Positions 14,500 through 27,335 of a stretch of 64,000 nucleotides of DNA are shown piece after piece (the stretch's first letter is position 1; each line of letters opens with the position of its first letter). The notes beneath the pieces are model-generated. The model saw only the letters and a program-made list of their open reading frames with translations, was not told the origin of the DNA and ran no database searches. This DNA is from Felis catus (Eukaryota), in contig NC_058380.1 in NCBI RefSeq assembly GCF_018350175.1, positions 91,574,001 through 91,638,000 on the forward strand, in the 5' to 3' direction. A program made the position numbers and the translations under genes.

Positions 14500-15500
14500 C
14501 CAGGCCCAAGGCAGGTGCCTCGCTCCAGCGGGGCGGAGGTTGGGTGGGAATTGACGACAGAGAGGGGACCCGAGGGAAGTGTGTCCCGCGGAAGCCCACC
14601 CCAGGCCTAGCCGGGTTTGTGGAGGACAGAGAAGGCCCCCGGCTGCAGAGGCCACAGAAGTCGGGGCGCCCCGAGGCCCCGAGCGAGGAGGTGGAATCGG
14701 AACTAGAGGAAGGGGGAGGGGGCGCAACCTGGAGGCGCCGGCCCGCCCCCGCAGGTGGAGCGCGCAGGCGCACTCCCCGAGCGCCTCCCGCCGCCGCGCC
14801 TGGATCCCGGATCCTTTGCCGCAGCGTCAGCGCCGCCGCCGCCGCCGCCGCCTCTTTTCCGCCTCCTTTCCTCCTCCGTCTCCGCCTCCGCTCCCTCCTC
14901 CTGCTCCGGCTCCTCCGCCTCCCGGACGCGACGCCCGCAGCCCGCGCCGAGCCCCGGGCCGCGCGGTGCCATGCTGCCCCGGCGGCGGCGCTGAAGGATG
15001 GCGACGCCGGTCCCTCCGCCCTCCCCGCGACACCTGCGGCTGCTGCGGCTGCTGCTCTCCGGCCTCGTCCTCGGCGCGGCCCTGCGCGGTGCCTCCGCCG
15101 GCCGCCCGGGTGAGCCAGCGCGTCCAGCGCAGGCCGCGGGGGCGCCCGGGGGCCGGGGAGCGCTCGGCTGCGCGGCGCCGCCGCCCTCGCCCGGCCGCAG
15201 GCCCCGCCTCGCCCGGGATGGGTAAACAGGCTGGGCCCGGAGGGCGCGGCGCCCTAGGGGCCGCCGAAGGGCTCCCCCGGATGGCGCTTCTCTGGGTTCC
15301 TGGCGGCGAACCCGAAGTTCACGCGCGTCTGGCCTTTGTCTCTGGATACGTGGGCTTGTTCTGTGTGTGCCTGTGTCTGAGGAGGGTTCTCTCCGGGTGG
15401 GCCCGCCGCTGGGAGTCTGTCCTGTGCGCGTCTGTGTGTGTGCGCTTCTCGGCCTCCGCGTGTCCGGGCCTGGCTCCGGGTGCCTGCCGGCCTTGCTGCT
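14500..15500 (+). promoter_or_regulatory. CpG island promoter of NPDC1
   Basis: Very high CpG density around exon 1, GC boxes near 14740 and a (GCC)7 run at 14832-14852. Confidence 0.8.
14971..14994 (+). other. Upstream ORF (MLPRRRR*) in the NPDC1 5'UTR
   Basis: gccATG CTG CCC CGG CGG CGG CGC TGA, ending 3 nt before the main ATG at 14998. Confidence 0.6.
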
Positions 15501-21699: not shown

Positions 21700-24600
21700 T
21701 GAGAATTCTGAACTTCAGGGGCGACCCTGAGAGAGGGAGACAGCCGGGTTCCTGAGGAGAGACCGGTGGGCTGGGCTGGGGGAAATGAGGTTGCCCCTGC
21801 TTGGAGCACACGGCCTGTCCTAAAAACGTCTGTCTCTGGGGCTAGTGCCCACAAGGCTGGGAAGTCCTTTCTCCCCACCCTGGCTCCTGGGCTGTGGCCT
21901 TGGGCTGGCCCGCAGCTGGGAGCCTCAGTTTTCCTTCTGCGCACTGGTGTGGGAGATGGAAGGAGGCAGGTGCAGGGAGCTGGGAACCTGTGTGGGTGAG
22001 GGCAGGGTGACGATCGCATGTCCACTGTTGCTTACTCTGTGCCTTCAGGGGAGATAGCCACGGAGGGAAAGGTGTGGCGGGCCCCAGCCTCTCTCAGGAA
22101 GGCCCAGGCGGTCTGCATTGCTGGCTGGCTCCTACATACTGAGGGCCAGGAGGTTCCCCTTGAGCTCTGGGGTCAGGCCCGGTGTCAGGACCCTTGCCTT
22201 TCCCGCTTCCTGTGGCCTGACCTGGGCAGGAGCGGCCACCAGGGCTTTGCTAGCTTCTGTCCCCAGCGTCCTGGCTGCCTGCTCCCCAGGGCCTCAGACA
22301 GGAGGGTCCTTCTTCCTGGGCAGCTGCAGTGAGACAGGAACCGGTATGTCTGGGCCAGGGAAGCAAGGGCAGGGGCTGGGGTCCTCCAGGCAGTTGGGTC
22401 TCCCTTGGCATAGGCCCGAAGCAGCTCAGCAGCCCGCTCCCTACCTGGTTCAGGCCTTCCATTGGCCTCAGGTGACCTCAGGCAGGGCCAGTCCCTGCTT
22501 TTGCCTAGACTCCAGCCACCCTTTTTCCCCACAGGCCCAGGATACAGTGGGCTGCCCTGGGGTGGGGGCTCGGGGCCCAGGAAAGCTGTCTCCACAGGGA
22601 CTTTGGAGACCCCAATCCTGGGCGAGGGGCCCATTACCTTCCTCCATACCACCTGTAGCCTCGTATCCCCGCCACTGTTCCTGTTGCCGTCCCAGGGCCC
22701 CTGACCACGAACAACCTTCTTGGCACAAGAGGCTGATCCCATCTCTGCCCTCTGGCCCGACCCTGTGCAGAGCCCTCCTGCTTTAGCTCTTTACCAGCCT
22801 TCCCTAGCTTGACATTCTCCTTGAGCATAGGTGACGAAAGGTGACATTCTCACAGCCCAGCAGAGACTCCGAGGTGACACCCATCTGTTGGGAGATACCC
22901 CCACCTCTGCCAGACCCTTACCCCGCAAGAGTGTAAGATCACATGTGGCACAGGACGTGGGGTGGTCCCTTAGCCAAGACCCTATGAAGTGGGCACTTGC
23001 TATGTGCAGACCCCAGGAGGTGACGCCTTCCTCCTGCAGTTCAGACACACTTCCCTGTCCCCCTGGGTGGCTGGCTGGGCTGGTTCCGAATCCCAGTCCC
23101 CCAGCTGCACCCCCACCCCGGGTTTTGTGCGGAACAGAAAGAGACGAGGCAAACTCAGTGCATGGGCATCTGGCGCTGGTCTCGGATGAGGAAGTGAACG
23201 TGCTCCCGGCCTGGGCGGGAAGGGAAGGGGTAGGAGAGGAGGCGCTGTGCTGCTGGCCTGGACCTGTGTGCCCTGTGGCTGGTCCACGTGGCCTCTGCAG
23301 CTCGAGATCAGAGTTGTCTCCCGCGGCAACTGGCGCCCGGCACAGCCCTCGTGCTGCACCCCCAGCCTGGGGGCTCTTTGGCCACCTGCCACTCTCTGCA
23401 CCCGCCTTCCAAAGGCTTCCCTGAACCCCCAGCATCATCTTGCCTTTGACAACGAAGTGTGTGCTGCCCTTGCTCCCTCCCCTGCGGGAGCAGGTGGCTT
23501 TGGAGCACGGCCACCAGGGGGCCTTCTGGGCACAGGCATGGACTCTGCCCTGCTCAGGATAACCCTTGGCCGGCAGGCAGCTAGGCTGTGGCCCCCCCCT
23601 TCCCTGAGGCAGCCCCCCAGGCTGGAGCTAACGCTGGTCCAGCCCTCCACCGCCCTAGGTGCTGCTGCCTGGCCACTGTCTGCAAGGGGGAGGTGGCCAG
23701 TGGCCCGCCCTCCGTCTGGGGCAGGGCCCCCCACCCCCATCTGTGGTTCCTTCAGTGGGTGCCCACAAGGAGGCCGGCCCCGAAGCAGCCCGGAGGGCTC
23801 AGCCGGGGGAGCCACAGTACGCTCCTGCTCCCAAGATGCTCACGGGCTGCAGAGATGGAGTTGGGTGCCCGCCTGCGTCCCAGAGAGTCACAGGGCCTGG
23901 GGTGAGGCGGCAGGATGAGGCCCCCGCTTTCCCTTTGACTCACGCTTTCTCACCTTCTTGACTTTCCCCTGAGAGCGTCTCATTCTGACTTGTTTCTAGG
24001 CCAAACCTCAGGGCCCCATTTCCCAGCCAGCAGGTTTTCATGACGGGGGGCCGCCAACCCGAGCTGGCAGGTGTGTGACCGGGGAGCAGTGGACCTGCGG
24101 CGGAGGGCAGGGAGGGTCCTTTCAATCCACCCAGAAAGGCAGCGGGCTGTGGGTGTGGGTGAGGCCTGTGGTGAGCGCCTTGGCCAGCCTGGCCGCGCAA
24201 ACAGGAAGGGCACGGGTGCCAGCAGCCAGAAGCCAGGTCCTAGCTGGCTGCCGTGGGATCGGCCCCTGCCCACCTGTCCCCCTGCCCACCTGCTGGGTGC
24301 CTGCCGCAAGGAGAGGTGGGCTGAGGCCAGGGTGTGGCTGCTCTGTGGTACACCCGTCAGTGGAGAGACGCCAGGGTGGGGCCAAAGGCTCAGCGCCACC
24401 CGGGGCATCCCCCTAAACGTCGGTGGGGGGGGGGCTCCGGGCAGGCCCTGGTGACCACCGGCAGGGAGTCAGGCCTGGCTGCGGCACCCACACCACAGGC
24501 TGCCAGATGGTTGCCGCCAGACCCCATAGCCTTCCTCCCCTCCTTCCACGTTGCGCAAAGCCCCACTGCAGCTCGGAGGTTATGCAGCGGCAGGGGAGCC

Positions 24601-26120
24601 CCACAGATGCCACACTGCCCCCTCTCCTGCATCGGCCTCTGTCTCCTCCGTGGATCTCACGCCAGCTCCCGGCTCCACCCTGACAGCAGTCTGGTCCTCA
24701 CTGGGGGGGGGGGGGGGGGGGGGCGGGGGCTGGGAGAGGCCAGCAGCTTCAGGTGCCACAAAGTGAAAAAGGATGGGGACAGCGGGCTCTGCAAGGTCCC
24801 CAGAATGGGGTGGGGCAGCAGACCCAGCCAACAGTTCCTGTTTGGCCTTCCTTCCACAACAGCCATCCCGCAGATTCAAGAGCGGGACCGGCCTGAGGCC
24901 TCCGGAAGCTGAGCACGAGGGCCAGTCCTTGCCCTGGCACGTCGGGGACCACGTGAGGGTCCAGCCAGGGTGAAGGAGGCAGATGGGCGCTGGCTGAGCT
25001 GAGCATGGGGAGGGGGCCAGAGCTCAGGGGAGGCCGACCTTGCCGGTTTGCCGTGTCTCCCGCTCAGAGGAACTGGAGAAGAAGGGGAAGGAACTTGACC
25101 TCCAGGCCTGGGCCCCCAGAGCTGGCCAGAGGGCAGCGGTGGGGGTGGAGAAGGCCTCTGGACTTGTGCCTTCCTTTTCCTGGAGGGAGCAGGCGCCGGC
25201 CCCCTACCTGCCAGCGTCAGGGACACAGCGACTCCTTCCCTTTCCACCCTGGAAAGCCCCCTCCCTGTCCCCACCCCCATCCTGGGCTGTGGGGCCCGGA
25301 GGAAGAGGCCTGGAGCCCCCAAGGGCAGGCCCCTGCCCATACTCCAGGCTGGCCGGGACCCTGGGACTTCGTGGACATGTGTCCTTGGGTGAGGAAAGAA
25401 GGCACGTGGCCCTGCAGCCCACCCTGGGGCCAGGCCCAGGCTGGCGCCTGCCCTTCCTAGGCACGTGCTGTGGCCTGGTGTGGACGCTCCCGGGACCCCG
25501 GGGCAGTCCCCCTCCCTGGGAACCTGGGTTCTGTGGCGAGGCAGGCGTGCTAGAGGCGGCAGGGGTGAGGAGGGGCGGGGCAGCGCCGTGAGAAGCTGTG
25601 GCCGAAGGCTCAGGCTCCTGGCAGGGCGCTGAGCACAGCAGGTCTTTGTGGGGGTCTGGGAGTGGCAGAGCGGGCAGGCGTTGGGCAGGGGAAGTGGGTG
25701 ATGCTACCGCAGGAGGGGCCTCCCAGGGAAGTGCGCCCTGCTTTCCGGGCCTGGGTGGTGGGCAGTGACTGGGTCCTTGCCAGCGGGGCGCTCTTCTGGG
25801 AAGGGGGCCCCCCCATCGGCCCAGGACGGCTCCTCCCCTGCTGGCCCCAGGCCCCTTCAGCAGGGGAGCGGGGCCTGGTGTGGGCTCTGGATGGCGCCCC
25901 TCCTAGAACCACCTAGCCCCCCTCCCCCACAGCCAGAGGCTCGGAGGAGAAAGCCAGCGGGCGGGCGGGCAGGCGGGTGAACCAGGATGGTGGCTGTTGC
26001 CAAAGGTCACCCCCAGGGCGGGGGCCGGGGCGGAGCGGGAGCAGGAAGATACCCTGGTTTCTGTCATCTTGGGCAGATGAAAGGAGATCGCTTCCAGGTG
26101 GGGCCGGGCGCGGGGGCGCA

Positions 26121-26164
26121 GCTGTGATTTCAGGGCGCCTCTGCCTAGTGGCTGCTGTGATTTG
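26121..26164 (-). promoter_or_regulatory. Two tandem GFI1/GFI1B-type motifs upstream of the FUT7 start
   Basis: GCTGTGATTT occurs twice (reverse complement AAATCACAGC); the second copy reads CAAATCACAGCA. Motif match only. Confidence 0.45.
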
Positions 26165-26204
26165 AGATCCTCGGGTGGCTGCAACCGGGCGCTGTGGATG
26201 AGCC

Positions 26205-27335
26205 ATGCTGGTGAGTGCGTGGTCCCCCGGGAGACCTGGGCCGGGAGGAAGGGGCCCGCGGGGCGCGCCCGGGAAGACAGCCGCTCTCCCCCCTCCCCCC
26301 CCCGCGTGTCCCCTGTAGGATGCGGCCCCACTCAGAGGCGTCGGGCATCTGGGGATGCTGGCCGGAGCCGCCCTGCTCTCCACCCTGTGGCTCCTGTGGC
26401 AGCTCGGGTGGGCCCCCGCGAGGGTCCCCGTGGCGCCGCCCACGCTCACCGTCCTCGTCTGGCACTGGCCCTTCGCCGACCAGCCCCCGGAGCTGTCCAG
26501 CGACACCTGCGTCCGTTACGGGGTGGCCCGCTGCCGCCTGAGCACCAACCGCAGCCTGCTGGCCAGCGCGGACGTCGTGGTGTTTCACCACCGCGAGCTG
26601 CAGAGCCGGCGGGCCCGCCTGCCCCTGGCCGAGCGGCCGCGGGGGCAGCCCTGGGTGTGGGCCTCCATGGAGTCGCCCAGCCACACCCGCGGCCTCGGGC
26701 GCCTGGGCGGCATCTTCAATTGGGTGCTTAGCTACCGGCGGGACTCGGACATCTTCGTGCCCTACGGCCGGCTGGAGCCTCACGCGGGGCCCGCCCCGCC
26801 GCTGCCGGCCAAGAGCGGGACGGCAGCCTGGGTGGTCAGCAACCTCCAGGAGCGGCAGCGGCGCGTGCAGCTGTACCGGCAGCTGGCGCCCCACCTGCGG
26901 GTGGACGTGTTCGGCCGCGCCAGCGGGCGGCCGCTCTGTGCCGGCTGCCTGCTGCCCACCGTGGCCCCGTACCTCTTCTACCTGGCTTTCGAGAACTCGC
27001 AGCACCGAGACTACATCACCGAGAAGTTCTGGCGCAACGCTCTGGCCGCCGGCACCGTCCCCGTGGTGCTGGGGCCCCCGAGGGCCACCTACGAGGCCTT
27101 CGCGCCCGCCGACGCCTTCGTGCACGTGGACGACTTCGGCACGGCCCGAGAGCTGGCCTCGTTCCTGGTGGGCATGAACGAGAGCCGCTATCGGCGCTAC
27201 TTTGCCTGGCGGGACCGGCTCCGCGTGCGGCTGTTTGGGGACTGGCGAGAGCGCTTCTGTGCCGTCTGCACCCACTACCCCCGCCTGCCGCGAGACCAGG
27301 TCTACCGGGACCTCAAGGGCTGGTTCCAGGCCTGA
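26205..27335 (+). CDS. FUT7: Alpha-(1,3)-fucosyltransferase 7 (GT10), 2 coding exons, ~340 aa
   Basis: Exon 2 ORF contains VVFHHREL, MESPSHT and FYLAFENSQHRDYITEKFWRNAL (alpha-1,3 FucT motif) and ends GWFQA*. Intron 26211-26318 (GTGAGT..TAG). The in-frame start is the ATG at 26205 (MLDAAPLRGVGHLGMLAG...) or the internal ATG at 26355. The ATG at 26198 is out of frame (see findings), so the start is uncertain. Confidence 0.93.

Follow-up and report, generated by a model that had tools for sequence, protein, structure and literature searches.

A frame switch in felid FUT7 that probably moved translation to a formerly out-of-frame AUG, and similar switches in other mammals

FUT7 (alpha-1,3-fucosyltransferase 7, GT10), an enzyme that builds the adhesion sugars of white blood cells, carries in cats one extra base in the region coding for its N-terminus, and we consider, with a probability of roughly 0.76, that the felid enzyme has since been made from the second AUG of the message (ATG2), reached by ribosomes scanning past the weak ancestral start (ATG1). 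A frameshift in the first exons is normally read as damage to a gene. The switch is real and common to the felids, is likely functional, and is more general than in the preliminary description of this DNA: the felid switch described there was found again, whereas its recurrence in other mammalian clades had been missed.

According to the mechanism proposed here, ATG2 would have existed before the insertion, out of frame, formed from codons 3 and 4 (N-A-T plus G) of a message in which the context of ATG1 was already weak. The two AUGs would compete for ribosomes, and any net +1 change within about 19 tail codons would swap the AUG that yields the enzyme, at little cost because the sequence of the cytoplasmic tail looks loosely constrained. 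The same layout would explain the bats (+1 near codon 19-20) as a separate occurrence, and probably also Afrotheria and geomyoid rodents (-2 near codon 8-9). In the simplest reading drift would have tolerated the change and selection would then have kept ATG2; the number of recurrences is not evidence of adaptation.

The FUT7 locus and the site of the extra base

The window is the whole 64,000-nucleotide stretch of Felis catus DNA that was analysed, and the FUT7 features from 26198 to 27335 given below lie on its forward strand. The best protein matches of the locus are fishing-cat and tiger FUT7 (98% identity), which identifies it as felid FUT7, and its 5' part has one genomic match only, indicating a single copy. 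NPDC1 lies upstream, its first 25 residues being encoded at 14998-15072. Four ruminant models of the FUT7 cluster (P0268, P0270, P0273, P0278) are named NPDC1 and have the NPDC1 N-terminus first, which suggests NPDC1-FUT7 read-through transcripts or mis-joined models. The GT10 Pfam domains PF17039 (7e-34) and PF00852 (3e-58) were found on the leopard-cat protein P0131, which differs by two residues from the luminal domain of the window. Six Cys, two N-glycan sequons, the GT10 motifs (FENS/DYITEK) and Arg108, which is residue 110 in the 342-aa forms, are kept; these residues have roles in FUT7 function.

The ancestral start ATG1 (26198..26200, tggATGa) is weak, with T at -3 and A at +4, and is now out of frame. 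ATG2 (26205..26207, gccATGc) has G at -3, lies in the catalytic frame and is the likely working start. The 108-nt intron that follows (26211..26318) is in phase 1 for ATG1 and phase 0 for ATG2; its donor GTGAGT at 26211 scores 8 of 9 against the consensus, its acceptor TAG ending at 26318 is preceded by 16 pyrimidines in 20, and the junction agrees with the felid models. The main coding exon (26319..27335) encodes the new tail, the membrane anchor, the stem and the GT10 catalytic domain. When the intron was removed, the three reading frames claimed earlier were reproduced: ATG1 opens a frame of 141 aa other than the catalytic one, ATG2 gives 340 aa in the catalytic frame, and ATG3 (26355..26357, gggATGc, G at -3) gives 326 aa, also in frame. 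That list of starts holds, but it overlooked a fourth ATG in the third frame at the beginning of exon 2 (26320..26322), with weak context and an ORF of 73 aa. The ORF from ATG1 (26198..26731, the stop ending at 26731; 177 aa if unspliced) overlaps the main ORF, in agreement with the proposal that the old start had become an overlapping uORF, and its first 14 codons represent the old tail. No homologue of its first 108 unspliced residues was found among 162 candidates, nor any Pfam family. ATG1 is kept in five shifted bats, as judged from their old-frame models. The mRNA fold around the starts (26150-26230, unspliced) was no stronger than in shuffles (z -0.23).

The old-frame start of the window is identical to that of the hyaena in 11 of the first 14 residues. 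When each base from 26338 to 26355 was removed singly, removal of 26347, 26348 or 26349 gave the best identity to the hyaena (18/22), which locates the extra base, any one of these three (26347..26349), at the Ala14-Leu15 junction. Removal of a base of the GGG run, where the insertion had been placed before, gave only 17/22, and this site was rejected; the single extra base itself stands, since the frame is restored relative to the hyaena. Collinearity with the hyaena returns with one base, which differs from a compensated frameshift (pCFM) with two indels summing to a multiple of three.

The most hydrophobic 19 residues of the new form (10-28, 26340..26396) are predicted to be the signal-anchor (Kyte-Doolittle mean 1.65, against 1.47 in the hyaena), and with this anchor present FUT7 may keep its predicted type II Golgi location.

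Two further features of the locus were observed. The intron 26211-26318 is a multiple of three in length and free of stops in the ATG1 frame, and the same is seen in mustelid, fruit-bat and mole read-throughs (P0154-P0156, P0193, P0042), so that intron retention would give a long-tailed FUT7 in unshifted species; the ATG2 frame of the cat with the intron retained stops at the acceptor TAG. Further upstream, 25157-25264 is homologous to the upstream exon of the rodent long FUT7 isoform (tblastn E 2e-7 to 3e-5). A coding exon was rejected here, as the matching place has no ATG and there is no 8/9 donor from 24071 to 26211, and the element is likely conserved for regulation rather than coding; the sequence GGAAAGCCCC at 25251-25260 within it is the reverse complement of an NF-kB-like site.

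Felid-wide distribution and the choice of start and splice site

The felid set consisted of the 13 NCBI proteins listed (15 of the 21 members of the first cluster, and the tiger cluster). Twelve of these proteins, representing 13 species, have 340 aa and start at ATG2, the other one starting at ATG3; the UniRef lion model likewise begins at ATG2. RefSeq automated annotation already contains the 340-aa ATG2 product (e.g. XP_047684865.1, XP_042819732.1). FUT7 of hyaena and meerkat has 342 aa in the old frame. Felid residues 1-12 correspond to the +1 frame of residues 3-15 of hyaena, meerkat and polar bear with 1-3 base mismatches, against 15-18 when the same back-translations are read in frame; shuffling gave an equally low cost no more than once in 1000 trials in the nine pairs with these three species, while against the distant protein P0007 the test was not significant (51-128 of 1000, three pairs). 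Felids being shifted and hyaena and meerkat being in the old frame, the +1 insertion would date to the felid stem.

An assembly or sequencing error, which the preliminary description had named as the outcome to be checked, has a negligible probability and is already refuted for felids. RefSeq-type pipelines do handle the corresponding shift of bats as erroneous (seven bat models are marked LOW QUALITY). However, the shift is common to models of the 13 felid species from separate assemblies, the extra base lies outside any homopolymer, and 14 of the 24 sequencing runs listed contain all of the sampled words (1.00), eight of these 14 being possible sources of the assembly.

It is very improbable that the enzyme begins mainly at codon 15 (at ATG3 here, at near-cognate ACG or GTG elsewhere) as a tail-less 326-aa form. 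Such a start would be in frame with G at -3, Thr and Val can be encoded by near-cognate start codons, and one Prionailurus model (P0125) begins at this codon. On the other hand Met occupies it in 3 of the 13 felid proteins only, limited to this genome and Prionailurus, with Thr in eight and Val in two; Thr is also found in hyaena and meerkat and is thus ancestral. Moreover three AUGs stand upstream on the mRNA, and the shifted bats offer no counterpart. In ten of the 13 felid proteins the first Met after that of ATG2 is Met119, which lies inside the catalytic domain. ATG3 is not felid-wide, and as an ancestral rescue start it was rejected.

Alternative splicing could restore the frame of ATG1, for example by joining the donor at 26211 to an exon start at 26338 (candidate acceptor AG at 26336..26337), with a shorter tail. 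Five of the 24 donor-acceptor pairs put ATG1 into the catalytic frame without a stop, yet we regard this solution as improbable. The candidate acceptor is a GAG with 10 pyrimidines in 20, against TAG with 16 in 20, a CAG lies two bases before it, and the alternative donors score 3-5 of 9 against 8. The tiger Gly9Arg, if caused by a single-base change, would remove the AG at 26336-26337, and in bats the shift is at the edge of the anchor. Additionally, four Logan ORFs (P0017, P0200, P0223, P0226) join ATG2 straight to exon 2 at the canonical junction, as would be expected of spliced contigs. In the raw RNA data no reads covered 25700-26600 in two runs sampled at 1-2%; two metatranscriptome contig sets over the same interval look unspliced and stop short of exon 2.

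Initiation at ATG2 by leaky scanning is predicted from the arrangement of the two AUGs. The first is weak and the better second one follows 7 nt on, within the limit of about 14 nt for close AUGs. In HeLa cells luciferase fell to 0.33, partly through lower mRNA, when a frame +1 ATG was placed at +8 behind a weak start, and in yeast a weak upstream out-of-frame ATG inhibits less as it moves from -25 to -7, the closest position tested in that experiment (PMC9743702). The geometry of FUT7 is the same as that of these reporters, so substantial initiation at ATG2 would be expected both before and after the indel. Leaky scanning as postulated earlier is borne out to the extent that this weak-context, 7-nt geometry fits efficient use of the second AUG in reporters; for the cat itself its use is probable by analogy. 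Since the ATG1 ORF ends within the last coding exon, junction-dependent decay of the message is unlikely.

Recurrence in other mammals and the history of ATG2

All cross-species claims in this work refer to protein sequences. In noctilionoid and vespertilionoid bats there is strong evidence for the same net +1 switch at another site. Named vespertilionid, molossid and phyllostomid proteins start with MPG, MLG or MSG and have an N-terminus two residues shorter, or else are represented by LOW QUALITY old-frame models, seven in all, with Miniopterus and Pteronotus among them. Pteropodids, rhinolophids, hipposiderids and emballonurids show no shift. Over 16 codons, each of the 12 bat pairs of old and new form takes 0-6 mismatches to fit the +1 reading, against 18-23 in frame, and none of 1000 shuffles was as low; pairs within the same group cost 0-1 (Miniopterus, Molossus, Desmodus, Myotis) or 5 (Pteronotus). 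The switch point lies near new codon 16-18 in bats and 11-14 in felids, and the events are thus separate. Unspliced read-throughs of shifted bats have Gln (a phase-0 CAG acceptor) before exon 2, while most unshifted species show the phase-1 acceptor pattern. Extra new-frame AUGs stand beside ATG2 in Myotis (P0219, P0221) and in the Desmodus cluster P0213-P0215 (a Met-Met start; Met at new residue 4).

For Afrotheria and geomyoid rodents the evidence of the same switch is moderate. Exon 2 up to the Arg-Leu-Arg motif is shorter by 2 nt, and Lys or Gln stands at the acceptor in the read-throughs of Elephas, Dugong, Tenrec, Echinops and Thomomys. A switch-point model was better than an in-frame model against 9 of 9 references for each of Loxodonta (summed cost 52 against 100), Trichechus (59/106), Elephantulus (86/134) and Dipodomys (51/91), and in only 3 of 9 for the otter controls with an in-frame Met3. 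The support is no more than moderate because the switch point was free to vary in this model, and shuffling at a fixed offset favoured the switch neither in Afrotheria nor in Dipodomys. All four shifts are net +1, the sole class that brings ATG2 into frame, and all eight LOW QUALITY mammalian models seen fall in shifted clades.

Other start changes were noted in passing. Of nine comparisons for the hedgehog eight favoured the shift model, though narrowly (77 vs 97), a result that an in-frame Met3 also explains. Horse and rhino models of 367 aa (Equus P0280, P0283, P0035; rhino P0014) start at ATG2 with an 82-nt intron retained, and the horse has Ala-Trp where others have Ala-Gly; this suggests loss of the acceptor AG in the horse as a possible fifth route to ATG2. 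The aardvark protein P0044 has Met at the place of the Lys/Gln acceptor codon of other afrotherians, as if the acceptor may have mutated into a new in-frame start. The tail of the armadillo P0025 has a Trp-Ala-Ser-Trp-Pro stretch that looks as if a few codons were read in another frame, which may point to a compensated frameshift pair or to a duplication. Sea otter and Eurasian otter (P0149, P0151) have 340-aa models from an in-frame Met3, a turnover of the start without a frameshift.

In the old frame ATG2 spans two codons: its A and T are the last two bases of codon 3 (for Asn, His, Asp or Tyr, with T in third place), and its G is the first base of codon 4. Residues 3-4 permit it in 34 of 58 unshifted named species, where permission falls short of proof as a synonymous change is invisible at the protein level, and exclude it in 24 (9 of 28 families). 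It is likely that ATG2 is ancestral and lay latent, out of frame, until the insertion brought it into the catalytic frame. Trp or Tyr precedes Met1 in upstream-running models of Phyllostomus hastatus, Pteropus and Arvicanthis, and T at -3 of ATG1 is therefore likely ancestral as well. A metagenome scan (80 loci) contained no mammalian FUT7, the best full-length match having 49% identity.

About ten independent losses of ATG2 were counted in unshifted lineages and none among the 35 shifted species scored. The ten losses fall on unshifted branches of 2.69 substitutions per site, so that 6.0 would be expected on the 1.61 of the shifted crown clades; retention is significant (P 0.003 Poisson, 0.009 conditional), also in bats alone (P 0.03-0.05), while for the felids by themselves, with 0.38 losses expected, the test has no power (P 0.68). 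The test used the luminal domain of 94 proteins on a fixed species topology. Eight models were left out, Elephas, Dugong, Echinops, Orycteropus, Thomomys, Myotis yumanensis and P. iriomotensis because they start elsewhere and Rhynchocyon as a LOW QUALITY model, and losses of ATG2 among these would weaken the result. Furthermore the models are not independent proof of the start, since annotation programs choose ATG2 because it is in frame. Benitez-Cantos et al. 2020 (PMC7397870) report that, where the start is weak, selection disfavours a strong out-of-frame AUG following it, which fits the repeated losses of ATG2.

A wider reading of the same observations, which we consider rather unlikely, is that FUT7 carries an ancient decoy/start switch flipped by net +1 indels. 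The better-placed ATG2 would be an out-of-frame decoy throttling the enzyme in most placental mammals, and a single net +1 indel would make the decoy the start and raise output. The flip would have occurred independently in cats, in most microbats, in Afrotheria, in geomyoid rodents and perhaps, with the retained 82-nt intron, in horses, changing selectin-ligand levels on leukocytes, and dogs, mustelids and murids would have lifted the brake through loss of ATG2.

Tail, catalytic domain and relation to known systems

The preferred reading, a tolerated swap of the start, replaces the cytoplasmic tail, and this part of the earlier claim is upheld together with the move of the frame from ATG1 to ATG2; the consequence for Golgi targeting and sLeX output proposed with it is weak. 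Tails contain 1-4 Lys or Arg in unshifted species and 1-2 in felids and shifted bats. In the felid switch the R-x-R motif was lost and an Asp gained; gains of Arg (in the tiger tail, and in that of lion and leopard) amount to two events only. All eight ruminant proteins have a single Arg as the only Lys or Arg of the tail, which makes an Arg-rich Golgi signal a weak idea. Robust binding of GOLPH3 generally required a tail net charge of at least 4, and the FUT3 tail did not bind it (Welch et al. 2021, PMC8421267). Loss of such a signal was accordingly set aside as the main effect; a changed Golgi position after the swap is possible though unsupported.

Felid FUT7 could instead be weak or decaying, with ATG1 capturing most ribosomes and FUT4 or FUT9 supplying the selectin ligands; we give this little credence. 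Among the 13 felid sequences compared F178L, at a column that does not vary in 30 unshifted proteins, is fixed, A278V occurs in 10 and Q329R in 12. Decay would be hard to see in a crown as short as that of the felids, 0.10 substitutions per site. Among bats, Molossus is accelerated (Tajima 36:14, P 0.003) and Phyllostomus discolor P0207 has Arg108Gly, again at a column invariant in the 30 unshifted proteins; the residue matches human Arg110, which is needed for activity. Against decay, no stop or X occurs in the 31 shifted proteins scanned, ATG2 is kept across the shifted clades, and Tajima tests were not significant in 4 of 4 felid (16:10, 13:14, 20:10, 17:15; P 0.10-1.0), 5 of 6 bat and 2 of 2 other comparisons. 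The distance to P0007 is 49 residues in felids, 50 in caniforms and 52 in other feliforms. No speed-up of the felid catalytic domain and no sign of a pseudogene were thus observed at the protein level, where power within felids is low. In ischaemia models cat hearts were protected by a sialyl-Lewis-x oligosaccharide and by P-selectin blockade (review, PMC6400985), which speaks for the selectin pathway in cats but not for FUT7 itself.

The swap seems to have occurred two to four times in one immune gene, which makes FUT7 a natural, replicated test of AUG competition at exactly the 7-nt spacing of the reporters and implies that the cytoplasmic tail of a Golgi enzyme is replaceable wholesale. If enzyme output is altered, this would bear on species differences in leukocyte homing. 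For annotation caution is advisable: pipelines 'correct' a real shift, as in the seven bat models, and may call FUT7 lost in cats and bats.

The RefSeq felid records give the same protein and are silent on its N-terminus being a shifted reading of the ancestral tail, and of the bat equivalents some are annotated from ATG2, others as LOW QUALITY 'corrected' models. The literature consulted, mainly open papers, has no account of the FUT7 switch or its recurrence; supplements of TOGA2 and of the pCFM study could list the gene. What is likely new is the rescue by an upstream, formerly out-of-frame AUG, apparently repeated across clades.

Compensatory frameshift pairs (Biba et al. 2022, PMC8935012: RAB36, ARHGAP6, NCR3LG1), enriched near gene ends, share with FUT7 a short terminal stretch in a new frame, but FUT7, not named in that main text, has one indel only, compensated by a start upstream of it. 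TOGA/TOGA2 likewise allows for an early, inactivating-looking change being tolerated via another start, in that TOGA2 masks frameshifts in the first 10% of an ORF with a downstream in-frame ATG (bioRxiv 10.64898/2026.06.30.735536). In FUT7, however, rescue comes from an ATG ahead of the indel that was formerly out of frame; in most felids no further in-frame Met occurs before residue 119, so that the rule would likely flag damage. FUT7 also resembles pairs of out-of-frame AUGs at short distance (Li et al. 2022, PMC9743702; PMC7397870), which share the weak first AUG, the +1 AUG at +8 and a competition that depends on context and spacing. There the second AUG is harmful, and selection depletes or weakens it, whereas in FUT7 the decoy likely became the start itself through an indel downstream.
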